64,000 nucleotides of DNA from assembly GCF_056746865.1 (NCBI RefSeq), contig NZ_CM163382.1. The stretch is one strand, 5' to 3'. The position numbers and the translations under genes are program-made. Shown here one piece after another: positions 9,046-58,057 of this stretch. How positions within the stretch are numbered: position 1 is the stretch's first letter; each line of letters starts with the position of its first letter. A model generated the notes under the pieces. The model was not told the origin of the DNA and made no database searches. It worked only from the letters and a program-made list of their open reading frames with translations.

Positions 9046-10344
9046 ATGCGTAAAATTAAAGGGTTACGTTGGTATATGATCGCACTGGTGACGCTCGGCA
9101 CCGTGCTTGGTTACCTGACGCGTAACACTGTGGCGGCAGCTGCGCCAACTCTGATGGAAGAGTTAAACATCTCCACCCAACAGTATTCCTATATCATCGC
9201 AGCCTATTCTGCTGCTTATACGGTCATGCAACCGGTAGCGGGTTATGTACTGGATGTGCTGGGTACGAAAATCGGTTACGCAATGTTTGCTGTACTGTGG
9301 GCCGTATTCTGTGGTGCAACCGCGCTGGCAGGTAGCTGGGGTGGCCTGGCGATTGCTCGTGGTGCGGTCGGTGCCGCGGAAGCAGCGATGATCCCGGCGG
9401 GTCTGAAAGCCAGCTCCGAATGGTTCCCGGCGAAAGAGCGTTCCATCGCAGTAGGCTACTTTAACGTAGGTTCTTCTATTGGTGCGATGATTGCGCCGCC
9501 GCTGGTTGTATGGGCAATCGTGATGCACAGCTGGCAGATGGCATTTATCATCTCCGGTGCATTGAGCTTTATCTGGGCAATGGCATGGCTGATTTTCTAT
9601 AAACATCCGCGCGACCAGAAGCATCTGACCGATGAAGAACGCGACTACATTATTAATGGTCAGGAAGCCCAGCACCAGGTGAGCACGGCGAAGAAAATGT
9701 CCGTTGGTCAGATCCTGCGTAACCGTCAGTTCTGGGGTATTGCACTGCCGCGTTTCCTGGCAGAACCGGCCTGGGGTACTTTTAACGCGTGGATCCCGCT
9801 GTTCATGTTTAAAGTTTACGGCTTTAACCTGAAAGAGATCGCGATGTTTGCCTGGATGCCGATGCTGTTTGCTGACCTCGGTTGTATCCTCGGTGGTTAC
9901 CTGCCGCCGCTGTTCCAGCGTTGGTTTGGTGTTAACCTGATCGTTTCTCGTAAGATGGTCGTAACGCTGGGTGCTGTGCTGATGATTGGCCCGGGTATGA
10001 TCGGTCTGTTCACCAACCCGTATGTCGCAATTATGCTGCTGTGTATCGGTGGTTTTGCTCACCAGGCACTGTCTGGCGCGCTGATTACGCTCTCTTCTGA
10101 CGTGTTCGGTCGTAACGAAGTGGCAACGGCAAACGGTTTAACCGGGATGTCCGCATGGCTGGCAAGTACGCTGTTTGCGCTGGTTGTCGGTGCACTGGCT
10201 GACACCATCGGCTTCAGCCCGCTGTTCGCAGTTCTGGCAGTATTTGACCTGCTGGGTGCGCTGGTTATCTGGACGGTGTTGCAGAACAAACCGGCGATTG
10301 AGGTGGCGCAGGAAACACATAACGATCCTGCACCGCAACATTAA
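9046..10344 (+). CDS. exuT: Hexuronate (galacturonate/glucuronate):H+ symporter ExuT (MFS)
   Basis: ORF track 8926..10344; start set at MRKIKGLRWYM (432 aa) with GAGG 8 nt upstream; 12-TM MFS pattern. Confidence 0.93.
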   Translation: MRKIKGLRWYMIALVTLGTVLGYLTRNTVAAAAPTLMEELNISTQQYSYIIAAYSAAYTVMQPVAGYVLDVLGTKIGYAMFAVLWAVFCGATALAGSWGGLAIARGAVGAAEAAMIPAGLKASSEWFPAKERSIAVGYFNVGSSIGAMIAPPLVVWAIVMHSWQMAFIISGALSFIWAMAWLIFYKHPRDQKHLTDEERDYIINGQEAQHQVSTAKKMSVGQILRNRQFWGIALPRFLAEPAWGTFNAWIPLFMFKVYGFNLKEIAMFAWMPMLFADLGCILGGYLPPLFQRWFGVNLIVSRKMVVTLGAVLMIGPGMIGLFTNPYVAIMLLCIGGFAHQALSGALITLSSDVFGRNEVATANGLTGMSAWLASTLFALVVGALADTIGFSPLFAVLAVFDLLGALVIWTVLQNKPAIEVAQETHNDPAPQH

Positions 10345-16731: not shown

Positions 16732-17034
16732 ATGCAGTGGTATTTATCCGTATTAAAAAATTATGTTGGTTTCTCTGGTCGCGCACGTCGTAAAGAGTAC
16801 TGGATGTTTACTCTGATTAACGCCATCGTCGGCGCTATTATCAATGTCATTCAATTGATTTTAGGTTTAGAGTTTCCGTTCCTTTCTCTCATTTACCTGG
16901 CAGCAACAATCATTCCGGTCATTGCTCTGTGCGTTCGTCGTCTGCATGATACTGACCGTTCAGGTGCGTGGGCGCTTCTCTATCTGGTACCGATCATTGG
17001 CTGGTTAGTTCTGTTTGTATTTGCCTGTTGGTAA
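16732..17034 (+). CDS. yhaI: DUF805-family inner-membrane protein YhaI, 3' end disrupted by IS1 (reading frame ends ...FVFACW* with the stop inside IS1)
   Basis: ORF runs into the IS1 end at 17030; N-terminus MQWYLSVLKNYVGFSGRARRKEYWMF is paralogous to YhaH; removing IS1 and one TSD copy restores a 118-aa frame. Confidence 0.85.
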   Translation: MQWYLSVLKNYVGFSGRARRKEYWMFTLINAIVGAIINVIQLILGLEFPFLSLIYLAATIIPVIALCVRRLHDTDRSGAWALLYLVPIIGWLVLFVFACW

Positions 17035-17044
17035 TGACTCCAAC

Positions 17045-17548
17045 TTATTGATAGTGTTTTATGTTCAGATAATGCCCGATGACTTTGTCATGCAGCTCCA
17101 CCGATTTTGAGAACGACAGCGACTTCCGTCCCAGCCGTGCCAGGTGCTGCCTCAGATTCAGGTTATGCCGCTCAATTCGCTGCGTATATCGCTTGCTGAT
17201 TACGTGCAGCTTTCCCTTCAGGCGGGATTCATACAGCGGCCAGCCATCCGTCATCCATATCACCACGTCAAAGGGTGACAGCAGGCTCATAAGACGCCCC
17301 AGCGTCGCCATAGTGCGTTCACCGAATACGTGCGCAACAACCGTCTTCCGGAGCCTGTCATACGCGTAAAACAGCCAGCGCTGGCGCGATTTAGCCCCGA
17401 CGTATCCCCACTGTTCGTCCATTTCCGCGCAGACGATGACGTCACTGCCCGGCTGTATGCGCGAGGTTACCGACTGCGGCCTGAGTTTTTTAAATGGCGG
17501 AAAATCGTGTTGAGGCCAACGCCCATAATGCGGGCGGTTGCCCGGCAT
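17045..17548 (-). CDS. insB: IS1 transposase InsB (expressed as an InsAB' fusion by -1 frameshifting)
   Basis: 167-aa ORF recognised as IS1 InsB ([16 protein letters not shown]...). Confidence 0.95.
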
Positions 17549-17742
17549 CCAACGCCATTCATGGCCATATCAATGATTTTCTGGTGCGTACCGGGTTGAG
17601 AAGCGGTGTAAGTGAACTGCAGTTGCCATGTTTTACGGCAGTGAGAGCAGAGATAGCGCTGATGTCCGGCAGTGCTTTTGCCGTTACGCACCACCCCGTC
17701 AGTAGCTGAACAGGAGGGACAGCTGATAGAAACAGAAGCCAC
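17467..17742 (-). CDS. insA: IS1 InsA (zinc-finger/HTH transposition inhibitor)
   Basis: 91-aa ORF with CPSC...CSHC zinc-finger motif; canonical IS1 InsA sequence. Confidence 0.95.
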
Positions 17743-17805
17743 TGGAGCACCTCAAAAACACCATCATACACTAAATCAGTAAGTTGGCAGCATCACCTTG
17801 CCTGT

Positions 17806-17865
17806 TTAGAGGGCAATTCTGGCAGCAATCGTTACGGAAACGATCCGAAATTTGGTTCAAATTAA
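17806..17865 (+). pseudogene. yhaI: Displaced 3' fragment of yhaI (would encode the C-terminal LEGNSGSNRYGNDPKFGSN*), separated from the gene body by IS1
   Basis: In-frame continuation of the yhaI reading frame once IS1 and one TSD copy are removed. Confidence 0.75.
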
Positions 17866-44308: not shown

Positions 44309-44782
44309 ATGCCAAATATTGTTTTAAGCCGGATTGATGAGCGTTTGATTCACGGTCAGGTCGGCGTTCAGTGGGTCGGATTTGCGGGGGCAAATCTGGT
44401 GCTGGTAGCCAACGATGAGGTTGCCGAAGATCCGGTACAACAAAACCTGATGGAAATGGTACTGGCAGAAGGGATCGCCGTACGTTTCTGGACGCTGCAA
44501 AAAGTTATCGACAACATCCACCGCGCCGCCGATCGACAGAAAATCCTGCTGGTTTGTAAAACACCTGCCGATTTCCTGACGCTGGTGAAAGGTGGCGTTC
44601 CGGTGAATCGCATTAACGTTGGCAATATGCACTACGCCAATGGCAAGCAACAAATCGCCAAAACGGTTTCTGTGGATGCGGGCGATATCGCAGCATTTAA
44701 CGACCTGAAAGCCGCTGGGGTGGAATGCTTCGTTCAGGGCGTCCCGACAGAGCCTGCTGTGGACCTCTTTAAATTACTTTGA
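44309..44782 (+). CDS. agaV: PTS N-acetylgalactosamine-specific IIB component AgaV
   Basis: ORF track 44273..44782; start at MPNIVLSRIDERLIHGQ (157 aa); mannose-family IIB with active-site His. Confidence 0.92.
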   Translation: MPNIVLSRIDERLIHGQVGVQWVGFAGANLVLVANDEVAEDPVQQNLMEMVLAEGIAVRFWTLQKVIDNIHRAADRQKILLVCKTPADFLTLVKGGVPVNRINVGNMHYANGKQQIAKTVSVDAGDIAAFNDLKAAGVECFVQGVPTEPAVDLFKLL

Positions 44783-44792
44783 GGGATTCATC

Positions 44793-45572
44793 ATGGAAAT
44801 CAGTCTGTTGCAGGCATTCGCGTTGGGCATTATCGCCTTTATCGCTGGCCTGGATATGTTTAACGGCTTAACCCATATGCACCGCCCGGTGGTCCTCGGC
44901 CCGTTAGTCGGGCTGGTACTTGGCGATCTGCATACCGGTATTTTAACCGGCGGTACGCTGGAACTGGTGTGGATGGGGCTGGCCCCGCTGGCAGGCGCAC
45001 AACCGCCTAACGTGATTATCGGTACTATCGTCGGCACGGCGTTTGCCATTACTACTGGCGTGAAACCCGATGTCGCGGTCGGTGTCGCCGTACCTTTCGC
45101 TGTCGCAGTACAGATGGGGATTACCTTCCTGTTCTCGGTGATGTCTGGCGTAATGTCCCGCTGCGACCGGATGGCGGAGAACGCCGATACTCGCGGCATT
45201 GAACGCGTGAACTATCTGGCACTGCTGGCACTCGGCACTTTCTATTTTCTCTGCGCTTTCCTGCCTATCTACTTCGGCGCGGAACATGCAAAAACCATCA
45301 TTGATGTCCTGCCGCAACGATTAATCGACGGCCTCGGCGTCGCGGGCGGCATCATGCCAGCAATCGGTTTTGCCGTGCTGCTGAAAATCATGATGAAAAA
45401 CGTCTACATCCCCTACTTCATCCTGGGCTTTGTTGCCGCAGCCTGGCTCAAGTTACCGGTGCTGGCTATTGCTGCCGCCGCGCTGGCGATGGCGCTGATC
45501 GACCTGCTGCGTAAATCTCCTGAACCGACTCAACCTGCGGCACAGAAAGAGGAATTTGAAGATGGCATCTAA
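44793..45572 (+). CDS. agaW: PTS N-acetylgalactosamine-specific IIC component AgaW (full length)
   Basis: 259-aa multi-TM ORF, paralogous to AgaC. Confidence 0.9.
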   Translation: MEISLLQAFALGIIAFIAGLDMFNGLTHMHRPVVLGPLVGLVLGDLHTGILTGGTLELVWMGLAPLAGAQPPNVIIGTIVGTAFAITTGVKPDVAVGVAVPFAVAVQMGITFLFSVMSGVMSRCDRMAENADTRGIERVNYLALLALGTFYFLCAFLPIYFGAEHAKTIIDVLPQRLIDGLGVAGGIMPAIGFAVLLKIMMKNVYIPYFILGFVAAAWLKLPVLAIAAAALAMALIDLLRKSPEPTQPAAQKEEFEDGI

Positions 45573-46440
45573 TCAAACCACCCTGCCGAACGTCAGTGAA
45601 AACGAAGAAACACTGCTGACTGGCGTCAATGAAAACGTGTATGAAGATCAGAGCATTGGCGCAGAGCTGACAAAAAAAGATATCAACCGCGTCGCCTGGC
45701 GTTCCATGCTGTTACAAGCGTCTTTTAACTACGAACGTATGCAGGCTTCCGGCTGGTTGTACGGTCTGCTGCCTGCTCTGAAAAAGATCCACACTAATAA
45801 ACGCGACCTGGCGCGCGCCATGAAGGGGCATATGGGTTTCTTCAATACCCATCCGTTTCTGGTGACGTTTGTTATCGGCATTATCCTTGCGATGGAGCGT
45901 TCTAAGCAGGACGTTAACAGTATTCAGAGCACCAAAATTGCCGTCGGTGCGCCGCTCGGCGGGATTGGCGATGCAATGTTCTGGCTGACGCTACTGCCGA
46001 TTTGTGGCGGGATTGGTGCAAGCCTCGCGCTACAAGGCTCTATTCTTGGCGCTGTCGTCTTTATTGTGCTGTTCAACGTGGTACACCTGGGGCTGCGTTT
46101 TGGTCTGGCGCATTATGCTTATCGCATGGGCGTGGCGGCGATTCCACTCATTAAAGCGAATACCAAAAAAGTCGGCCATGCTGCGTCAATCGTTGGGATG
46201 ACGGTAATCGGCGCGCTGGTAGCAACCTATGTTCGTTTAAGCACCACGCTGGAAATCACCGCTGGCGATGCAGTGGTTAAGTTACAGGCTGATGTTATCG
46301 ACAAACTGATGCCTGCCTTCTTACCGCTGGTCTACACCCTGACCATGTTCTGGCTGGTACGCCGCGGCTGGAGTCCGCTGCGCCTGATTGCAGTTACCGT
46401 GGTTCTCGGTATCGTCGGTAAATTCTGTCATTTCCTTTAA
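45556..46440 (+). CDS. agaE: PTS N-acetylgalactosamine-specific IID component AgaE
   Basis: 294-aa ORF, paralogous to AgaD (shared ...SFNYERMQA... motif); start may be 2 codons downstream. Confidence 0.88.
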   Translation: MKMASNQTTLPNVSENEETLLTGVNENVYEDQSIGAELTKKDINRVAWRSMLLQASFNYERMQASGWLYGLLPALKKIHTNKRDLARAMKGHMGFFNTHPFLVTFVIGIILAMERSKQDVNSIQSTKIAVGAPLGGIGDAMFWLTLLPICGGIGASLALQGSILGAVVFIVLFNVVHLGLRFGLAHYAYRMGVAAIPLIKANTKKVGHAASIVGMTVIGALVATYVRLSTTLEITAGDAVVKLQADVIDKLMPAFLPLVYTLTMFWLVRRGWSPLRLIAVTVVLGIVGKFCHFL

Positions 46441-46457
46441 ATACAATGAGGTATTAG

Positions 46458-46892
46458 ATGTTAAGTATTATTTTGACAGGGCATGGCGGATTTGCCAGCG
46501 GCATGGAAAAAGCAATGAAGCAAATCCTCGGCGAGCAATCGCAGTTTATCGCCATCGATTTTCCGGAAACCTCAAGCACCGCGCTGCTTACATCGCAGCT
46601 TGAAGAGGCCTTCGCCCAACTGGATTGTGAAGACGGCATTGTTTTTCTGACAGATTTGCTGGGCGGCACGCCGTTTCGCGTAGCTTCAACGCTGGCGATG
46701 CAAAAACCGGGCTGTGAAGTGATCACCGGCACCAATTTGCAACTGCTACTGGAGATGGTGCTGGAGCGCGAAGGGTTAAGCGGTGAAGAGTTCCGTGTGC
46801 AGGCGCTGGAGTGTGGACACCGTGGGCTGACCAGTTTGGTGGACGAGTTAGGCCGCTGCCATGAAGAATGTCCGGTCGAGGAAGGAATATGA
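46458..46892 (+). CDS. agaF: PTS IIA component AgaF (mannose family)
   Basis: 144-aa ORF with GGAGA-like RBS; IIA fold pattern (ILTGHGGFASG). Confidence 0.88.
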   Translation: MLSIILTGHGGFASGMEKAMKQILGEQSQFIAIDFPETSSTALLTSQLEEAFAQLDCEDGIVFLTDLLGGTPFRVASTLAMQKPGCEVITGTNLQLLLEMVLEREGLSGEEFRVQALECGHRGLTSLVDELGRCHEECPVEEGI

Positions 46893-48022
46893 CACACGTT
46901 CTGCGCGCCAGAAGGCTGCTGACTGAAGAGGGATGGCTCGATGACCATCAGTTGCGTATTGCTGACGGTGTAATCGCAGCAATCGAACCGATTCCAGTGG
47001 GCGTGACTGAACGCGATGCGGAACTGCTCTGCCCCGCTTACATCGACACCCATGTACACGGTGGTGCGGGCGTTGATGTAATGGATGACGCGCCGGATGT
47101 GCTCGACAAGCTGGCAATGCACAAGGCACGCGAAGGTGTCGGCAGTTGGTTACCGACCACCGTAACCGCGCCGCTTAATACCATTCATGCGGCGCTGAAA
47201 CGTATTGCTCAACGTTGCCAACGCGGCGGACCTGGTGCGCAAGTGCTGGGGAGTTATCTCGAAGGACCATACTTCACGCCGCAGAATAAAGGCGCGCATC
47301 CGCCGGAGCTGTTTCGCGAGCTGGAAATTGCCGAGCTGGATCAGTTGATTGCCGTTTCTCAGCACACCTTGCGCGTGGTAGCGCTGGCACCGGAAAAAGA
47401 AGGGGCATTGCAGGCCATCCGCCATCTTAAACAGCAAAACGTACGGGTGATGCTGGGGCATAGCGCGGCGACCTGGCAACAAACCCGTGCCGCGTTTGAC
47501 GCTGGTGCCGACGGCCTGGTGCATTGCTATAACGGGATGACAGGTTTACATCACCGCGAACCGGGAATGGTTGGCGCGGGATTAACGGACAAGCGCGCCT
47601 GGCTGGAACTGATAGCCGATGGTCATCATGTGCATCCGGCGGCGATGTCGCTGTGTTGTTGCTGTGCAAAAGAGAGAATCGTGCTCATCACCGACGCGAT
47701 GCAGGCAGCAGGGATGCCGGATGGTCGCTATACGTTATGTGGTGAAGAAGTGCAGATGCACGGTGGCGTTGTCCGTACCGCGTCCGGTGGGCTGGCGGGC
47801 AGTACGCTGTCTGTCGATGCGGCAGTGCGCAACATGGTTGAGTTGGCGGGTGTAACGCCTGCCGAAGCCATCCATATGGCGTCGCTGCATCCGGCGCAAA
47901 TGCTGGGTGTTGATGATGTTCTGGGATCGCTTAAACCGGGCAAACGCGCCAGCATCGTTGCGCTGGATAGCGGGCTGCATGTGCAACAAATCTGGATTCA
48001 GGGTCAATTAGCTTCGTTTTGA
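46889..48022 (+). CDS. agaA: N-acetylgalactosamine-6-phosphate deacetylase AgaA (full length, NagA homologue)
   Basis: ORF track 46868..48022; start at MTHVLRAR (377 aa) overlapping the agaF stop; metal-binding HxH motif (DTHVHGG). Confidence 0.9.
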   Translation: MTHVLRARRLLTEEGWLDDHQLRIADGVIAAIEPIPVGVTERDAELLCPAYIDTHVHGGAGVDVMDDAPDVLDKLAMHKAREGVGSWLPTTVTAPLNTIHAALKRIAQRCQRGGPGAQVLGSYLEGPYFTPQNKGAHPPELFRELEIAELDQLIAVSQHTLRVVALAPEKEGALQAIRHLKQQNVRVMLGHSAATWQQTRAAFDAGADGLVHCYNGMTGLHHREPGMVGAGLTDKRAWLELIADGHHVHPAAMSLCCCCAKERIVLITDAMQAAGMPDGRYTLCGEEVQMHGGVVRTASGGLAGSTLSVDAAVRNMVELAGVTPAEAIHMASLHPAQMLGVDDVLGSLKPGKRASIVALDSGLHVQQIWIQGQLASF

Positions 48023-48094
48023 TGGTTTGCTCCTTTATTGGGCCTTCACTTCCCCCGTAAGGCCTTTCTTTTTCTTTCGTTGTGCTCTGTGCAG

Positions 48095-48160
48095 GGTATC
48101 GGATGCGACGCTGACGCGTCTTCTTTGACCTACGGTACGCCGCATCCGGCAATCGGTGAA
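48095..48160. repeat. REP/BIME element downstream of agaA
   Basis: atcggatgcgacgctgacgcgtcttctttgacctac plus inverted partner cgccgcatccggc. Confidence 0.65.
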
Positions 48161-48371
48161 CATAGCAACGTCATCACGCCATCCTTTAATCTTCCCTTGT
48201 CTTTTCTTTCAACGATCACAAATTTCGTTTTATTTCTTTTTTCTCCATTGAACTTTCAGTTTCTTTTCTATAGATTTTAATCAACGAAAGACATCACCAA
48301 GTGAAATGAAACGAAAGGTAAGCGAAAGCGACAACGCCCGACGTCAAGTTCATCAGACTAAGGATTGAGTT
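48161..48371 (+). promoter_or_regulatory. agaS upstream control region with AgaR-operator-like CGAAAG/CTTTCG repeats
   Basis: ttcgttttatttc, caacgaaagacatcacc and tgaaatgaaacgaaaggtaagcgaaagcg motifs upstream of the agaS ATG. Confidence 0.55.
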
Positions 48372-49526
48372 ATGCCAGAAAATTACACCCCTGCTGCTGC
48401 CGCAACCGGTACATGGACTGAAGAAGAGATCCGCCATCAGCCTCGCGCATGGATCCGTTCACTCACCAACATCGACGCGCTACGTTCCGCGCTCAATAAC
48501 TTCCTTGAACCGTTACTGCGCAAAGAGAATCTGCGGGTAATCCTGACCGGAGCCGGAACCTCGGCATTTATCGGTGACATCATCGCGCCGTGGCTCGCCA
48601 GCCATACAGGTAAAAACTTCAGCGCCGTACCGACCACCGATCTGGTCACCAATCCGATGGACTACCTGAATCCAGCTCATCCACTGCTGTTGATCTCCTT
48701 CGGTCGATCCGGCAACAGCCCGGAAAGCGTCGCCGCCGTGGAACTGGCAAATCAATTTGTACCCGAGTGCTATCACCTGCCGATCACCTGCAACGAAGCG
48801 GGCGCTCTTTACCAAAACGCGATCAACAGCGACAACGCGTTTGCCCTGCTGATGCCCGCAGAAACGCACGACCGCGGCTTTGCGATGACCAGCAGCATTA
48901 CCACCATGATGGTCAGCTGCCTCGCGGTTTTCGCACCTGAGACGATCAACAGCCAGAGCTTCCGCGACGTGGCGGATCGTTGCCAGGCGATCCTGACCTC
49001 ACTGGGCGATTTCAGCGAAGGTGTGTTTGGTTACGCACCGTGGAAACGGATCGTTTATCTCGGCAGCGGTGGCTTACAGGGCGCAGCACGCGAGTCGGCG
49101 CTGAAAGTACTGGAACTGACGGCGGGTAAACTGGCGGCCTTTTATGATTCCCCGACCGGATTCCGTCATGGCCCGAAATCGCTGGTCGATAACGAAACGC
49201 TGGTGGTGGTATTTGTCTCCAGCCACCCTTACACCCGTCAGTATGATCTTGATCTACTGGCTGAACTTCGCCGCGATAACCAGGCAATGCGCGTAATCGC
49301 CATCGCCGCGGAAAGCACAGACATCGTTGCTGCCGGTCCACATATTATCCTGCCGCCGTCCCGTCACTTTATCGACGTTGAGCAGGCATTTTGCTTCCTG
49401 ATGTACGCCCAGACGTTTGCACTTATGCAGTCGCTGCACATGGGCAATACGCCGGATACCCCATCAGCCAGCGGCACCGTTAACCGCGTGGTGCAAGGCG
49501 TAATCATTCATCCGTGGCAGGCATAA
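48372..49526 (+). CDS. agaS: Galactosamine-6-phosphate deaminase/isomerase AgaS (tandem SIS domains)
   Basis: 384-aa ORF recognised; AGGA RBS. Confidence 0.93.
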   Translation: MPENYTPAAAATGTWTEEEIRHQPRAWIRSLTNIDALRSALNNFLEPLLRKENLRVILTGAGTSAFIGDIIAPWLASHTGKNFSAVPTTDLVTNPMDYLNPAHPLLLISFGRSGNSPESVAAVELANQFVPECYHLPITCNEAGALYQNAINSDNAFALLMPAETHDRGFAMTSSITTMMVSCLAVFAPETINSQSFRDVADRCQAILTSLGDFSEGVFGYAPWKRIVYLGSGGLQGAARESALKVLELTAGKLAAFYDSPTGFRHGPKSLVDNETLVVVFVSSHPYTRQYDLDLLAELRRDNQAMRVIAIAAESTDIVAAGPHIILPPSRHFIDVEQAFCFLMYAQTFALMQSLHMGNTPDTPSASGTVNRVVQGVIIHPWQA

Positions 49527-50399
<873 letters not shown>

Positions 50400-50565
50400 T
50401 CATTAGTTTTTTATGATTTATCCCAATGTACTTCCCGATTAATATCGGGGAGTGCCTTAATGGTAAAGGAGATAACTAAACCTTAATAAATACATCAGTA
50501 CAATATCGCAACAATAATATATTTAAAAAAATTATATTATTCAACTTTATGGTGAGGATTACACA

Positions 50566-51042
50566 ATGAGCAGTCCAAATATTCTCTTAACCCGTATTGA
50601 TAACCGTCTGGTTCACGGTCAGGTTGGCGTGACCTGGACATCTACCATCGGTGCAAATCTGCTGGTAGTCGTGGATGATGTTGTCGCTAACGATGATATT
50701 CAACAGAAATTAATGGGTATTACCGCGGAAACCTACGGCTTTGGCATTCGTTTCTTTACTATCGAAAAAACCATTAATGTCATCGGCAAAGCTGCACCGC
50801 ATCAAAAGATCTTCCTGATTTGCCGTACGCCACAAACGGTACGTAAATTGGTAGAAGGTGGCATTGACCTGAAAGATGTCAACGTCGGCAATATGCATTT
50901 CTCGGAAGGGAAAAAGCAAATCAGCAGTAAAGTTTATGTCGATGACCAGGATCTCACGGACTTACGTTTTATTAAACAACGTGGCGTGAATGTTTTCATT
51001 CAGGACGTCCCTGGCGATCAAAAAGAACAAATCCCTGACTAA
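50566..51042 (+). CDS. agaB: PTS galactosamine-specific IIB component AgaB
   Basis: 158-aa ORF paralogous to AgaV (LTRIDNRLVHGQVGVTW). Confidence 0.92.
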   Translation: MSSPNILLTRIDNRLVHGQVGVTWTSTIGANLLVVVDDVVANDDIQQKLMGITAETYGFGIRFFTIEKTINVIGKAAPHQKIFLICRTPQTVRKLVEGGIDLKDVNVGNMHFSEGKKQISSKVYVDDQDLTDLRFIKQRGVNVFIQDVPGDQKEQIPD

Positions 51043-51080
51043 ATCTAAAATCGCCTTAATATTGGTTTGAGGTAATAAAA

Positions 51081-51884
51081 ATGCATGAAATAACCCTACT
51101 CCAAGGATTATCCCTGGCGGCGTTAGTTTTCTTTCTGGGGATTGATTTTTGGCTGGAAGCCTTATTTTTATTCCGCCCGATAATCGTTTGTACCCTAACT
51201 GGCGCTATTCTCGGTGATATTCAGACTGGCTTAATTACCGGTGGTCTGACAGAGTTGGCTTTCGCCGGATTAACCCCTGCAGGTGGTGTTCAGCCGCCCA
51301 ACCCGATTATGGCGGGTCTGATGACCACCGTCATTGCATGGTCTACGGGCGTTGATGCCAAAACGGCAATTGGTCTTGGCCTGCCGTTTAGTTTGTTAAT
51401 GCAGTACGTCATTCTGTTCTTCTATTCCGCTTTCTCATTATTTATGACCAAAGCCGATAAATGCGCGAAAGAAGCGGATACGGCAGCGTTTTCCCGACTT
51501 AACTGGACAACGATGCTCATCGTCGCTTCAGCGTATGCGGTGATTGCTTTCCTCTGTACTTACCTGGCACAAGGGGCGATGCAGGCGCTGGTGAAAGCGA
51601 TGCCCGCCTGGCTGACCCACGGCTTTGAAGTGGCTGGCGGTATTCTGCCTGCCGTTGGTTTTGGCTTGCTGCTGCGCGTAATGTTCAAAGCGCAATATAT
51701 CCCTTACCTGATCGCCGGTTTCCTGTTTGTTTGCTACATCCAGGTCAGCAACCTGTTGCCGGTTGCCGTACTGGGCGCAGGCTTTGCGGTGTATGAGTTT
51801 TTCAATGCGAAATCCCGGCAGCAAGCGCAACCGCAGCCCGTTGCCAGTAAAAATGAAGAAGAGGACTACAGCAATGGGATCTGA
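51081..51884 (+). CDS. agaC: PTS galactosamine-specific IIC component AgaC
   Basis: 267-aa multi-TM ORF paralogous to AgaW. Confidence 0.92.
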   Translation: MHEITLLQGLSLAALVFFLGIDFWLEALFLFRPIIVCTLTGAILGDIQTGLITGGLTELAFAGLTPAGGVQPPNPIMAGLMTTVIAWSTGVDAKTAIGLGLPFSLLMQYVILFFYSAFSLFMTKADKCAKEADTAAFSRLNWTTMLIVASAYAVIAFLCTYLAQGAMQALVKAMPAWLTHGFEVAGGILPAVGFGLLLRVMFKAQYIPYLIAGFLFVCYIQVSNLLPVAVLGAGFAVYEFFNAKSRQQAQPQPVASKNEEEDYSNGI

Positions 51885-52665
51885 AATCAGTAAAAAAGAT
51901 ATCACCCGTCTGGGCTTTCGTTCGTCACTGCTACAAGCAAGCTTTAACTACGAAAGGATGCAGGCGGGCGGTTTTACCTGGGCGATGTTGCCGATCCTGA
52001 AAAAGATTTATAAGGACGACAAACCGGGCCTAAGCGCGGCGATGAAAGATAACCTCGAATTTATTAATACCCACCCGAATCTGGTCGGATTCCTGATGGG
52101 GTTATTAATTTCGATGGAAGAAAAAGGAGAAAACCGCGACACCATTAAAGGCCTCAAAGTGGCACTGTTTGGCCCAATCGCCGGGATTGGCGATGCGATT
52201 TTCTGGTTTACCTTATTGCCGATTATGGCGGGAATTTGCTCATCATTTGCCAGCCAGGGAAACTTGCTGGGGCCGATTCTATTTTTCGCCGTTTACCTGC
52301 TTATCTTCTTCCTGCGCGTCGGCTGGACCCACGTCGGTTATTCAGTCGGCGTGAAGGCGATCGATAAAGTGCGAGAGAACTCGCAGATGATTGCTCGTTC
52401 GGCAACCATCCTCGGGATCACGGTAATCGGCGGGCTGATCGCTTCGTATGTGCATATTAACGTGGTGACATCGTTTGCCATCGACAGTACCCACAGCGTC
52501 GCGCTGCAGCAGGATTTCTTCGATAAAGTCTTCCCGAATATTTTACCGATGGCCTACACCCTGCTGATGTATTACTTCCTGCGGGTGAAAAAAGCGCATC
52601 CGGTGCTGTTAATCGGCGTGACGTTTGTTCTTTCTATTGTTTGTTCTGCATTCGGCATTTTGTAA
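51874..52665 (+). CDS. agaD: PTS galactosamine-specific IID component AgaD
   Basis: ORF track 51727..52665; start at MGSEISKKD (263 aa) overlapping the agaC stop. Confidence 0.92.
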   Translation: MGSEISKKDITRLGFRSSLLQASFNYERMQAGGFTWAMLPILKKIYKDDKPGLSAAMKDNLEFINTHPNLVGFLMGLLISMEEKGENRDTIKGLKVALFGPIAGIGDAIFWFTLLPIMAGICSSFASQGNLLGPILFFAVYLLIFFLRVGWTHVGYSVGVKAIDKVRENSQMIARSATILGITVIGGLIASYVHINVVTSFAIDSTHSVALQQDFFDKVFPNILPMAYTLLMYYFLRVKKAHPVLLIGVTFVLSIVCSAFGIL

Positions 52666-53433
52666 ATGGAACGAGGCACCGCGTCTGGCGGTGCCTCTTT
52701 ACTTAAGGAATTTCATCCTGTGCAAACCCTTCAACAAGTTGAAAACTATACGGCGTTAAGTGAACGTGCCAGCGAATATTTATTGGCCGTGATCCGTAGC
52801 AAACCGGATGCCGTGATTTGCCTGGCGACCGGAGCCACGCCATTACTGACGTATCATTATCTGGTAGAAAAAATCCACCAGCAGCAGGTTGATGTCAGCC
52901 AGCTCACCTTCGTGAAGCTCGACGAATGGGTGGATCTGCCATTAACGATGCCTGGCACCTGCGAAACTTTCCTGCAACAGCATATCGTGCAGCCGCTGGG
53001 GCTACGTGAAGACCAACTCATCAGCTTTCGCTCCGAAGAGATAAATGAGACAGAGTGCGAACGGGTAACGAACCTGATTGCGCGCAAAGGCGGTCTGGAT
53101 TTATGCGTTCTCGGATTGGGGAAAAACGGTCATCTTGGGCTGAACGAACCGGGAGAAAACCTGCAACCGGCCTGCCATATCAGTCAACTTGATGCCAGAA
53201 CACAGCAACATGAGATGTTAAAAACCGCGGGCCGTCCTGTGACTCGTGGGATCACCTTAGGCCTGAAGGATATTCTCAATGCCCGCGAAGTTTTGTTACT
53301 GGTGACTGGCGAAGGAAAGCAGGATGCGACAGAACGTTTTCTCACGGCTAAAGTCTCTACCGCTATCCCGGCTTCATTTTTATGGCTGCATAACCATTTC
53401 ACATGCGTGATTGATGAAATGTGTCGTCGTTAA
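52666..53433 (+). CDS. agaI: Putative galactosamine-6-phosphate deaminase/isomerase AgaI (NagB-like)
   Basis: ORF recognised; start uncertain (ATG at 52666 without RBS, or GTG at 52720 with AAGGAA RBS); a hairpin aggcaccgc...gcggtgcct lies at 52673-52697. Confidence 0.85.
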   Translation: MERGTASGGASLLKEFHPVQTLQQVENYTALSERASEYLLAVIRSKPDAVICLATGATPLLTYHYLVEKIHQQQVDVSQLTFVKLDEWVDLPLTMPGTCETFLQQHIVQPLGLREDQLISFRSEEINETECERVTNLIARKGGLDLCVLGLGKNGHLGLNEPGENLQPACHISQLDARTQQHEMLKTAGRPVTRGITLGLKDILNAREVLLLVTGEGKQDATERFLTAKVSTAIPASFLWLHNHFTCVIDEMCRR

Positions 53434-53482
53434 CTCGCCAGGTAAAGGCGTTGTAGCGCTATTCCTGCTGCGACGCCTGTAA

Positions 53483-54346
53483 TCACTCTCCCTGCTGCTC
53501 CAGCGCATACTTATACAGCGCATTTTTCTTCACGCCGTGAATTTCTGCGGCCAGCGCCGCCGCTTTTTTCAGCGGCAGTTCTGCCTGTAGCAGCGCCAGC
53601 GTGCGCAGGGCATCAGCAGGCAGGTCATCTTCCTGCGCTTTATGGCCTTCGACAATCAGTACCATTTCGCCTTTGCGACGGTTTTCATCTTCTTTGACCC
53701 ACGCCAGCAGCTCGCCAACGGGCGCGCCGTGAATGGTTTCCCAGGTTTTGGTTAGCTCACGCGCCAGAACCACGTAGCGGGATTCGCCTAATACCGCAAC
53801 GATATCTTCCAGGCTATCTAACAGACGGTGGGTAGATTCATAAAAAATCAGCGTGCGCGGCTCCGCTTCAATGGCTTTTAGCGCATCACGGCGGCCTTTT
53901 GATTTGGCAGGTAAAAAGCCTTCATAACAAAAACGATCGGATGGTAAACCCGCGGCGCTTAACGCAGTGATAGCAGCACACGGCCCGGGTAGCGGCACCA
54001 CGCGAATCCCCGCTTCACGGCAGGTACGCACCAGATGGTAGCCAGGATCGTTAATTAGCGGCGTTCCGGCATCGGAAACCAGCGCAATGTTTTGCCCCTC
54101 TTGCAGCTTCGCCAGCAGCGTTTCGGCTTTTTGTTGTTCGTTATGGTCGTGCAGCGCAAACAACCGAGCATTAATCCCAAAATGTTGCAGCAATAAACCG
54201 GTGTGACGCGTATCCTCGGCGGCAATCAGATCAACGGCCTGTAATACCTCCAACGCACGCTGGGTGATATCCGCCAGATTGCCGATTGGCGTCGGTACAA
54301 TGTAAAGCTGGCCCTGAGAATTATCCGCCGATTGGTGTTGTTTCAT
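53483..54346 (-). CDS. rsmI: 16S rRNA (cytidine1402-2'-O)-methyltransferase RsmI (YraL)
   Basis: 287-aa ORF recognised (tetrapyrrole-methylase fold, [14 protein letters not shown]). Confidence 0.92.
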
Positions 54347-54410
54347 TGTGTCGTCCGTATTGCCGATTTAATATTGAGCATTGCGTAAAAAAAATATCAC
54401 TGGATACATT

Positions 54411-56447
54411 ATGGTACCCTCAACATTTTCTCGTTTGAAAGCCGCGCGTTGTCTGCCTGTTGTTCTGGCAGCCCTGATTTTCGCCGGTTGTGGCACCCAT
54501 ACTCCCGATCAGTCCACTGCTTATATGCAGGGCACGGCGCAGGCTGATTCTGCCTTTTACCTGCAACAGATGCAGCAAAGTTCTGATGATACCAGGATCA
54601 ACTGGCAATTACTCGCCATTCGTGCACTGGTGAAAGAAGGTAAAACCGGACAGGCGGTGGAGTTGTTTAACCAACTACCGCAAGAACTGAACGATTCTCA
54701 GCGTCGCGAGAAAACACTGCTGGCGGCAGAGATTAAACTGGCGCAGAAAGATTTTGCTGGCGCGCAAAACTTGCTGGCGAAAATCACACCTGCAGATTTA
54801 GAACAAAACCAGCAAGCGCGTTACTGGCAGGCAAAAATCGATGCCAGCCAGGGGCGTCCTTCCATTGATTTACTGCGCGCGTTAATTGCTCAGGAACCGC
54901 TGCTCGGTGCGAAAGAAAAGCAGCAGAATATTGACGCCACCTGGCAGGCGCTCTCCTCCATGACTCAGGAACAGGCGAATACGCTGGTGATCAATGCCGA
55001 CGAAAATATTCTGCAAGGCTGGCTGGATCTGCAGCGCGTCTGGTTTGATAACCGTAACGATCCCGACATGATGAAAGCCGGGATCGCCGACTGGCAGAAA
55101 CGTTATCCGAACAACCCGGGCGCGAAAATGCTGCCAACGCAGTTGGTTAACGTAAAAGCGTTTAAACCCGCATCGACCAACAAAATCGCCCTGATGTTGC
55201 CACTGAATGGCCAGGCAGCGGTATTTGGTCGCACTATTCAGCAAGGCTTTGAAGCGGCGAAAAATATCGGCACTCAGCCAGTGGCGGCTCAGGTAGCTGC
55301 CGCACCTGCCGCAGACGTAGCAGAACAACCTCAGCCGCAAACCGTGGATGGCGTTGCCAGCCCGGCACAAGCCTCGGTTAGCGATCTGACCGGTGAACAA
55401 CCTGCGGCCCAGCCGGTGCCTGTAAGCGCCCCGGCGGCAACCACCGCAGCGGTAAGCGCACCCGCGAATCCATCCGCAGAGCTGAAAATCTACGATACAT
55501 CATCACAACCACTTAGCCAGATCTTAAGCCAGGTTCAACAGGATGGCGCGAGTATTGTGGTCGGTCCGTTGCTGAAAAATAACGTTGAAGAGTTGCTGAA
55601 GAGCAACACCCCGCTGAACGTGCTGGCACTGAACCAGCCGGAGAACATCGAAAACCGCGTCAATATTTGTTACTTCGCGCTTTCACCGGAAGACGAAGCG
55701 CGCGATGCAGCGCGTCATATTCGTGACCAGGGTAAACAAGCGCCGCTGGTGCTGATCCCACGCAGTTCATTGGGCGATCGCGTAGCCAATGCGTTTGCGC
55801 AAGAGTGGCAGAAACTGGGTGGCGGCACCGTTCTGCAACAAAAATTTGGTTCCACCAGCGAATTACGCGCGGGTGTTAACGGCGGTTCTGGTATTGCTTT
55901 AACGGGTAGCCCGATTACTCCCAGAGCGACAACCGACTCCGGCATGACGACCAACAATCCAACGCTGCAAACCACGCCAACCGATGACCAGTTCACCAAT
56001 AATGGCGGTCGTGTCGATGCGGTGTACATTGTGGCAACGCCGGGTGAAATCGCTTTTATCAAACCGATGATCGCCATGCGTAACGGCAGTCACAGCGGTG
56101 CGACGCTGTACGCCAGCTCCCGCAGTGCGCAAGGGACCGCTGGCCCGGATTTCCGCCTGGAGATGGAAGGCTTGCAGTACAGCGAAATCCCGATGCTGGC
56201 AGGCGGTAATCTGCCGTTAATGCAGCAGGCGCTCAGCGCGGTGAACAACGATTATTCGCTGGCTCGCATGTATGCGATGGGCGTTGATGCCTGGTCGTTG
56301 GCAAATCATTTCTCACAAATGCGCCAGGTTCAGGGTTTTGAAATCAACGGTAATACCGGAAGTCTGACGGCTAACCCGGATTGCGTGATTAACAGGAAGT
56401 TATCATGGCTACAGTACCAACAAGGTCAGGTAGTCCCCGCCAGTTAA
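54411..56447 (+). CDS. lpoA: Outer-membrane lipoprotein LpoA, activator of PBP1A
   Basis: ORF track 54381..56447; start at [14 protein letters not shown]...AGCG (lipobox; 678 aa); TPR N-domain and Ala/Pro/Gln-rich linker. Confidence 0.92.
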
Positions 56448-56800
56448 CCACCAAACAGACCGGCGATGCGTGGGAAGTACAAGCGCGTCGCTGGCTGGAA
56501 GGCAAAGGACTGCGGTTTATCGCCGCTAACGTGAACGAGCGTGGCGGCGAGATCGATCTGATAATGCGTGAAGGCCGGACCACCGTTTTTGTCGAGGTGC
56601 GTTACCGCCGCTCTGCGCTTTATGGCGGCGCGGCAGCCAGTGTGACCCGCAGCAAACAACACAAATTATTACAGACTGCCCGCTTGTGGCTCGCGCGTCA
56701 TAATGGGAGTTTTGATACTGTGGATTGCCGGTTCGATGTGGTAGCCTTCACCGGGAATGAGGTTGAGTGGATTAAGGATGCCTTTAATGACCACTCATAA
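56405..56800 (+). CDS. yraN: UPF0102 protein YraN (predicted endonuclease-like)
   Basis: 131-aa ORF recognised; overlaps the lpoA 3' end by 43 nt. Confidence 0.85.
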
Positions 56801-56819
56801 TTAAGGTTTAAGGATTAGC

Positions 56820-57410
56820 GTGCAAGAAAGAATTAAAGCTTGCTTCACTGAAAGCATTCAAACTCAAATTGCGGCGGCAGAGGCGCTTCCGGATGCCATC
56901 TCCCGTGCAGCCATGACGCTGGTTCAGTCTCTGCTCAATGGCAACAAAATCCTCTGTTGTGGTAATGGAACTTCCGCTGCCAATGCACAGCATTTTGCTG
57001 CCAGCATGATCAACCGTTTCGAAACGGAGCGGCCCAGCTTACCTGCCATTGCACTAAATACTGATAATGTTGTCTTAACGGCGATTGCCAACGATCGCTT
57101 ACATGATGAAGTGTATGCAAAACAGGTGCGGGCGCTGGGTCATGCGGGAGATGTATTGTTAGCCATTTCCACCCGTGGCAACAGCCGCGATATTGTAAAA
57201 GCGGTAGAAGCTGCCGTTACGCGTGATATGACCATTGTGGCATTAACCGGCTATGACGGCGGTGAACTTGCAGGTTTGTTAGGGCCACAGGATGTGGAGA
57301 TCCGCATTCCTTCGCATCGTAGTGCTCGCATTCAGGAGATGCATATGCTGACGGTAAATTGCCTGTGCGATCTGATCGATAACACGCTTTTCCCTCACCA
57401 GGATGTTTAA
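56820..57410 (+). CDS. diaA: DnaA initiator-associating protein DiaA (SIS domain)
   Basis: 196-aa ORF recognised. Confidence 0.92.
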
Positions 57411-57419
57411 GGAGAATAC

Positions 57420-57995
57420 ATGAAGGCATTATCGCCAATCGCAGTCCTTCTTTCCGCGCTGCTGTTGCAAGGTTGTGTTGCCGCTGCCGTAGTGGGTACC
57501 GCTGCTGTGGGTACCAAAGCCGCAACTGATCCACGCAGTGTCGGCACCCAGGTGGACGATGGTACCCTGGAAGTGCGCGTAAACAGCGCATTGTCGAAAG
57601 ACGAACAGATTAAGAAAGAAACCCGTATTAATGTCACGGCTTATCAGGGCAAAGTGCTGCTGGTTGGGCAGTCACCAAACGCTGAACTTTCGGCTCGCGC
57701 TAAACAAATTGCGATGGGCGTCGACGGTGCCAACGAAGTGTATAACGAGATTCGTCAGGGCCAGCCGATTGGTCTGGGCGAAGCGTCTAACGATACGTGG
57801 ATCACCACCAAAGTGCGTTCGCAGCTGTTAACCAGCGACCTGGTGAAATCGTCCAACGTGAAAGTGACCACCGAAAACGGTGAAGTGTTCCTGATGGGGC
57901 TAGTGACTGAACGTGAAGCGAAAGCGGCGGCAGATATTGCCAGCCGGGTAAGCGGCGTGAAGCGGGTAACCACAGCGTTTACGTTTATTAAATAA
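57420..57995 (+). CDS. dolP: Outer-membrane lipoprotein DolP (YraP), dual BON domain
   Basis: 191-aa ORF with lipoprotein signal (LLQGC) recognised; GGAGA RBS. Confidence 0.92.
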   Translation: MKALSPIAVLLSALLLQGCVAAAVVGTAAVGTKAATDPRSVGTQVDDGTLEVRVNSALSKDEQIKKETRINVTAYQGKVLLVGQSPNAELSARAKQIAMGVDGANEVYNEIRQGQPIGLGEASNDTWITTKVRSQLLTSDLVKSSNVKVTTENGEVFLMGLVTEREAKAAADIASRVSGVKRVTTAFTFIK

Positions 57996-58057
57996 GCCAT
58001 TGATCGGTCGTTGAAGTAAATATTCACACCTTAGCCGACCTGTTCCCCTCACCCTAA

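Follow-up and report, generated by a model that had tools for sequence, protein, structure and literature searches.

A cassette-less agaI–rsmI junction as an allele of the variable slot that holds yraHIJK in Escherichia coli K-12

In the DNA analyzed here, a 64,000-nucleotide stretch of contig NZ_CM163382.1 (GCF_056746865.1; hereafter the window), the genes agaI and rsmI converge on a spacer of exactly 49 bp (53434–53482), as the original prediction had stated, and the yraHIJK fimbrial genes that separate them in E. coli K-12 are absent. We suggest that agaI and rsmI bound, at their convergent 3′ ends, a variable slot of which the window has the cassette-less allele, and that this allele was inherited rather than newly made; it is orthologous to the junction of E. 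albertii. On balance we favor the reading that the cassette-less state was ancestral in E. coli and that the yra block was gained by recombination in phylogroups A, B1, and E. The junction itself is an ordinary, common, and already documented strain polymorphism and not a new system.

The gene encoding galactosamine-6-phosphate isomerase, agaI (52666–53433, plus strand), is an open reading frame of 255 amino acids that scores 472 bits against the NCBIfam equivalog model NF007291 (cut-off 271) and represents a 'long-tail' allele with the C-terminus ...FLWLHNHFTCVIDEMCRR. Facing it is rsmI (53483–54346, minus strand), for the 16S rRNA C1402 2′-O-methyltransferase, an open reading frame of 287 amino acids scoring 629 bits against NF011570 (cut-off 502). 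Both genes are intact, and their limits agree with the RefSeq annotation of strain 118UI, whose complete genome is base-for-base identical to the window from 44600 to 62400. As the length of the spacer is read directly off the sequence, chance plays no part in it. Upstream of agaI lie agaD, agaC, agaB, and kbaY, while on the rsmI side of the slot lpoA (54411–56447, plus strand; annotation transferred from 118UI, 98.7% to K-12 LpoA by tblastn) opens the conserved core block lpoA-yraN-diaA-dolP. Farther from the junction, at about 44793–48022, the N-acetylgalactosamine half of the cluster (agaW, agaE, agaF, and agaA/nagA, again by annotation transfer from 118UI) is complete, and K-12 retains of this half only pseudogene stubs of agaW and agaA; this is probably the other, 'first', sign of a non-K-12 source to which the original prediction alluded.

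In K-12 MG1655 the slot is flanked by the same genes, likewise convergent (b3141–b3146), with agaI ending at 3287025 and the rsmI stop at 3292475, and the intervening gap of 5449 bp holds yraH, yraI, yraJ, and yraK, annotated as putative fimbrial protein, chaperone, usher, and adhesin, respectively. The original prediction gave the operon a size of about 4–5 kb, which is essentially right (about 5.0 kb coding), and K-12 does not have the 49-bp junction. Comparison by blastn places the end of homology at window position 53390, some 14 codons before the agaI stop, and its restart at 53490, 7 nt inside rsmI. Thus, an allele-specific block of 99 bp (53391–53489), in which the spacer is bordered by the terminal 43 nt of agaI and the terminal 7 nt of rsmI, stands where K-12 has 5484 bp comprising its own agaI tail, yraHIJK, and a hairpin. 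The two encoded proteins differ in length, AgaI having 251 residues in K-12 and 255 in the window, and RsmI ending in ...EQQG (286 residues) in K-12 vs ...EQQGE (287) in the window. Searching the whole 64-kb window with K-12 YraH, YraI, YraJ, and YraK by tblastn gave no match at E ≤ 1e-3, and no yraHIJK-type usher (about 840 amino acids), chaperone, major subunit, or adhesin gene lies between agaI and rsmI. The flanks are 97.6–98.3% identical to K-12, with 0–3 differences per 100 bp as far as the breakpoint on either side, beyond which the agaI tails share only about 50%. A divergence rising toward the junction, as would be the signature of long-term balancing selection, was sought in these flanks and rejected, the differences staying at 0–3 per 100 bp.

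The cassette-less junction is common. Of 5426 complete E. coli genomes, 1835 have it uninterrupted according to a 1.8-kb probe, and 1821 match a 200-bp junction-spanning probe at 95.5–100% identity over at least 80% of its length; the carriers include EC958 (ST131) and a strain labelled ST38. The 99-bp block alone occurs at 1754 places in 1754 genomes, once per genome, and K-12-like yra DNA, all of it chromosomal and essentially single-copy, occurs in 3523. The two are mutually exclusive, as a chimeric probe joining the 99 bp to yra matched 5277 genomes, exactly the sum of 1754 and 3523 with an overlap of 0. Since no genome has both, yra has not simply been relocated elsewhere in cassette-less strains. 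The resulting shares, 34% cassette-less and 65% yra-positive, fit the published phylogroup pattern, with the phylogroups taken from strain names and the cited papers. The agaI–rsmI junction sequence also occurs in one record classified as a plasmid, which may represent a chromosomal contig with the wrong label or a segment that was captured.

As for the window itself, positions 30000–54999 match dozens of independently finished genomes at 100% identity, including 'O15:H18 strain ST69'. ST69 is a lineage of phylogroup D. The 25 kb of perfect identity to these genomes, set against flanks of 97.6–98.3% to K-12, bear out the earlier conclusion that the source is not K-12, and make the junction a reliable marker of a non-K-12, yra-negative part of the species, with a best match that is ST69-like. 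The source strain would be unable to make Yra fimbriae, one of the cryptic fimbriae of K-12.

The allele is also old. The spacer is exactly 49 bp in the window, EC958, 20Ec-P-124, MLI106K4, GABEEC10, E69, and E. albertii, and the alignment of these seven alleles has a mean column identity of 95%. In E. albertii and in the divergent 'E. coli' E69, both the spacer and the agaI tail correspond to those of the window at about 89–90% identity, and the roughly 11 in 100 positions at which the E. albertii junction differs are in line with the divergence of the flanking genes. The window has the features of this allele, namely the long AgaI tail (...NHFTCVIDEMCRR, 255 residues), the RsmI end ...QQGE (287 residues), and the 49-bp spacer with its conserved hairpin sequence. 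The same junction in about one-third of genomes, together with an orthologue in E. albertii, shows that the gap is not a fresh deletion, and the word 'absent', as used of yraHIJK in the original prediction, is not to be taken as 'deleted'.

Across Escherichia species the 3′ tail of agaI falls into two classes that follow yra status. The switch between them comes directly after TGGCTGCA, at window position 53390. A tail reading ...GTAACTTTATTTG... accompanies yra in K-12, E. whittamii, and Escherichia sp. MOD1-EC7003, and one reading ...AACCATTTCACATGCGTGATTGATGA... is found without it in the window, EC958, E69, E. albertii, and the strains with other cassettes described below. As both classes encode FLWLH-x-x-[FV]-x-C, a conserved motif of AgaI from other genera, they are diverged homologues (about 50% nucleotide identity) and not the debris of a fusion. 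The yra-bearing allele is old as well. Between K-12 and E. whittamii, in which yraKJIH (83–90% amino acid identity) lies between rsmI and agaI, synonymous divergence (dS) is 0.67–0.88 for the yra genes vs 0.32–0.55 for agaD, agaI, rsmI, and lpoA, which argues against a recent introgression from E. whittamii and makes the yra-bearing allele at least as old as the split of these two species.

Taken together with the published record, these observations lead us to favor the cassette-less state as ancestral within E. coli. The K-12 yra operon and its uneven distribution among phylogroups have been described (PMC3032704; PMC4128348; PMC6896753; PMC8767327); a reconstruction has the E/B1/A lineage as having 'acquired the yra operon' (PMC6896753), and Yra is absent in B2 and rarer in D (PMC8767327). 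It is this reconstruction and this distribution, along with the empty junction of E. albertii, that would make the cassette-less state the most likely starting point. The yra allele of K-12 and of phylogroups A, B1, and E would then have entered as one pre-existing block, consisting of the agaI tail, yraHIJK, and the rsmI tail, by homologous recombination in the flanking genes, with another Escherichia lineage in which the operon already stood at this place as the donor. Both the direction of the change, a gain in E/B1/A as opposed to an older loss, and the recombinational mechanism are what we infer from these patterns.

An older loss is the principal competitor, and it draws on the neighborhood of rsmI in other genera, which was surveyed by an RsmI-anchored scan. 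Klebsiella oxytoca, K. spallanzanii, Citrobacter sp. MGH106, and Superficieibacter each have, immediately 3′ of rsmI, an operon of Yra type with the same four genes in the same order and orientation as yraHIJK, and the ushers of these operons are 58–69% identical to YraJ vs 37–39% to FimD, SfmD, and ElfC of K-12. Past the operon of K. spallanzanii lies a gat operon (HMM scores of 678 bits for gatD, 661 for gatC, and 263 for gatA), and the open reading frames past the operon in the other three loci have near-identical starting sequences. The linkage of rsmI and yra may thus be older than the genus Escherichia, and the empty allele would in that case be a very old loss. According to such a scenario, the Escherichia ancestor had a Yra-type operon between rsmI and a tagatose-pathway sugar operon, the cassette-less form arose once by deletion or replacement before E. 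coli and E. albertii split and was spread by recombination, and the window inherits that loss. We regard this as possible but clearly the less probable course of events.

In its favor are the presence of such operons in four taxa of three genera beside gat genes, and the yra-positive state of the deep-branching E. whittamii and MOD1-EC7003. The yra-linked AgaI tail, moreover, is somewhat nearer the outgroup consensus than the cassette-less tail does, judging from Citrobacter AgaI sequences (LHRNFICLID in E. whittamii vs LHRNVSCLID in Citrobacter). Against it, the 99-bp block holds no yra remnant; local alignment on both strands with the 5.5-kb block of K-12 gave best scores of 19 and 23, compared with a mean of 20.9 (sd 2.7) for shuffled sequences. 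The cassette-less tail also retains F-x-C-[LV]-I-D, which excludes a simple deletion fusion, and in several Citrobacter species an agaI-like gene stands near rsmI with no yra. In MOD1-EC7003, the Yra-type operon at the agaI–rsmI position (L017, 1696–6711) encodes proteins 53–65% identical to those of K-12, and its usher is closer to that of Klebsiella (67%) than to that of E. coli (58%), a hint that cassettes have passed from genus to genus instead of being inherited vertically. Finally, the published reconstruction infers a gain in E/B1/A (PMC6896753).

A broader and quite tentative idea is that the Yra-bearing and cassette-less haplotypes of Escherichia, with their co-diverged AgaI tails, constitute an ancient trans-species polymorphism whose flanks have been homogenized by recombination up to a few bases from the breakpoints, and that the 3′ end of rsmI is a family-wide docking point for Yra. 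If that were true, both haplotypes would have persisted, or have been repeatedly exchanged, across species since before the radiation of the genus, and Yra-type cassettes would have docked beside tagatose-pathway sugar operons.

That the source strain or its clone recently lost yraHIJK by deletion from a K-12-like arrangement is for practical purposes refuted. Nothing specific speaks for it, although IS-linked losses of yra do exist, in EC25, N427, and Ec-042-T5-MAC. Some 1800 genomes from several lineages, as well as E. albertii, have an identical or near-identical junction, the tails of agaI and rsmI in the window are unlike those of K-12, and the tail class to which they belong is common to several species. 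A true secondary loss looks different: EC25 (L095, 5001–6100) keeps the K-12-type agaI tail and 136 bp from the region upstream of yraH and then runs into an IS1. In that strain the IS1 is followed by a truncated gene for an aromatic amino-acid transporter and by deaD, and the arrangement reflects an IS1-linked event, either a rearrangement or a deletion, in which everything from yraH on was lost; rsmI and lpoA are apparently also gone from this position. That the region was collapsed by an artefact of the assembly or of the window is next to inconceivable given its base-for-base identity to 118UI over 44600–62400 and the 100% identity of 30000–54999 to dozens of finished genomes.

The inherited cassette-less allele is one of several natural states of the slot, which is, in the words of the original prediction, an indel hotspot. 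Genomes labelled E. coli show five arrangements here: an empty slot, yraHIJK, a RelE/ParE-family toxin with an HTH antitoxin, a LysR regulator with a metallo-β-lactamase (MBL)-fold hydrolase, and a form in which the aga cluster is absent and garD is nearby, the last represented by the E. coli-labelled GTDB representative SCPM-O-B-8794, where garD is near rsmI. The occurrence of several unrelated contents between the same two stop codons marks the site as a variable cassette slot. Further support comes from other enterobacteria, as almost every genus inspected has a different sequence directly 3′ of rsmI among the 80 loci listed, out of more than 585 in the scan, a set that does not include E. 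fergusonii, E. marmotae, and E. ruysiae.

The toxin–antitoxin insert is present in full in 13 genomes; in CUWW06 it spans 9094–9944 of locus L003, and its RelE/ParE-family toxin has 148 amino acids and no NCBIfam match. A further 64 genomes match only the ends of this insert, and these ends are common to the inspected strains with the LysR/MBL cassette, which has the first 122 bp and the last 66 bp of the toxin–antitoxin insert. The LysR regulator and MBL-fold hydrolase are found in GF4-3 (L088, 7001–9423) and in O145:H28 strain RM12581 (L089, 4975–7066), and the best match of the hydrolase, an AidB-type quorum-quenching lactonase, falls short of the cut-off (202 vs 360 bits). In the O145:H28 strain, the segment from agaB to agaI has additionally been swapped for malX/malY-like genes. 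Both cassette states resemble the window in having its type of agaI and rsmI tails and boundaries at the stop codons, and differ from it in being rare and in having 0.85 kb or 2.4 kb in place of the 49-bp hairpin spacer. Neither the annotation nor the sequence shows an integrase, a tRNA, or a terminal or flanking repeat at the edges of any inspected state, a lack of site-specific integration features that points to the exchange of haplotype blocks through flanking homologous recombination. The slot would thus be a tidy example of such cassette exchange, with at least four natural contents.

Within the spacer, an imperfect 13-bp hairpin (53446–53478, plus strand) is formed by the arms AGGCGTTGTAGCG and TGCTGCGACGCCT around the loop CTATTCC on the aga-sense strand, with a predicted RNA fold of −23.3 kcal/mol (z −3.1). 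The fold of the minus, rsmI-sense, strand is unconvincing (z +0.4). Across the seven alleles 94.9% of the cells are paired, with only 1 compensatory pair, and the covariation does not exceed that of shuffled alignments (94/500). The hairpin may stabilize or end the aga transcript. An intrinsic (Rho-independent) terminator was considered and rejected, as no run of T follows the hairpin on either strand and a scan of the spacer called no terminator; Rfam gave no match for the hairpin, and a REP element was rejected because the 99-bp block is single-copy (1754 in 1754 genomes). A likeness to the hairpin between yraK and rsmI in K-12 (GCGTTG...GCAACGC) was dropped as being at chance level in comparison with shuffled sequences.

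The window is thus a yra-negative instance of the phylogroup-linked Yra polymorphism already reported (PMC6896753; PMC8767327), and what those reports do not give in their excerpted text is the anatomy of the junction, the linked agaI tails, the E. albertii orthologue, and the alternative cassettes. The fimbriae survey of Wurpel et al. (2013; PMC3559732) does not name Yra in its main text. The agaI/rsmI intergenic region is itself known from a different context, having been named as a site for chromosomal integration in E. coli Nissle 1917 (PMC8553829). The Nissle derivative SYNB1934 (L090, 7044–10990) has the cassette-less arrangement, with the first 68 nt of the 99-bp block at 100% identity, and differs from the window, in which the spacer is native, in carrying a lacI-stlA transgene (phenylalanine ammonia-lyase) inside the 49-bp spacer; the Nissle lineage is also different from the ST69-like source of the window. 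Breakpoints sharply at the gene ends, linked tails, and at least four contents help explain why engineered insertions at this site are tolerated in Nissle.

Elsewhere in the window, a 768-bp copy of IS1 (17030–17797) with typical IS1 ends is flanked by a 9-bp target duplication (TTGCCTGTT, at 17021–17029 and 17798–17806) and interrupts a DUF805 gene beside yhaH. This IS1 is absent from the otherwise identical 118UI and is therefore a strain-specific insertion.
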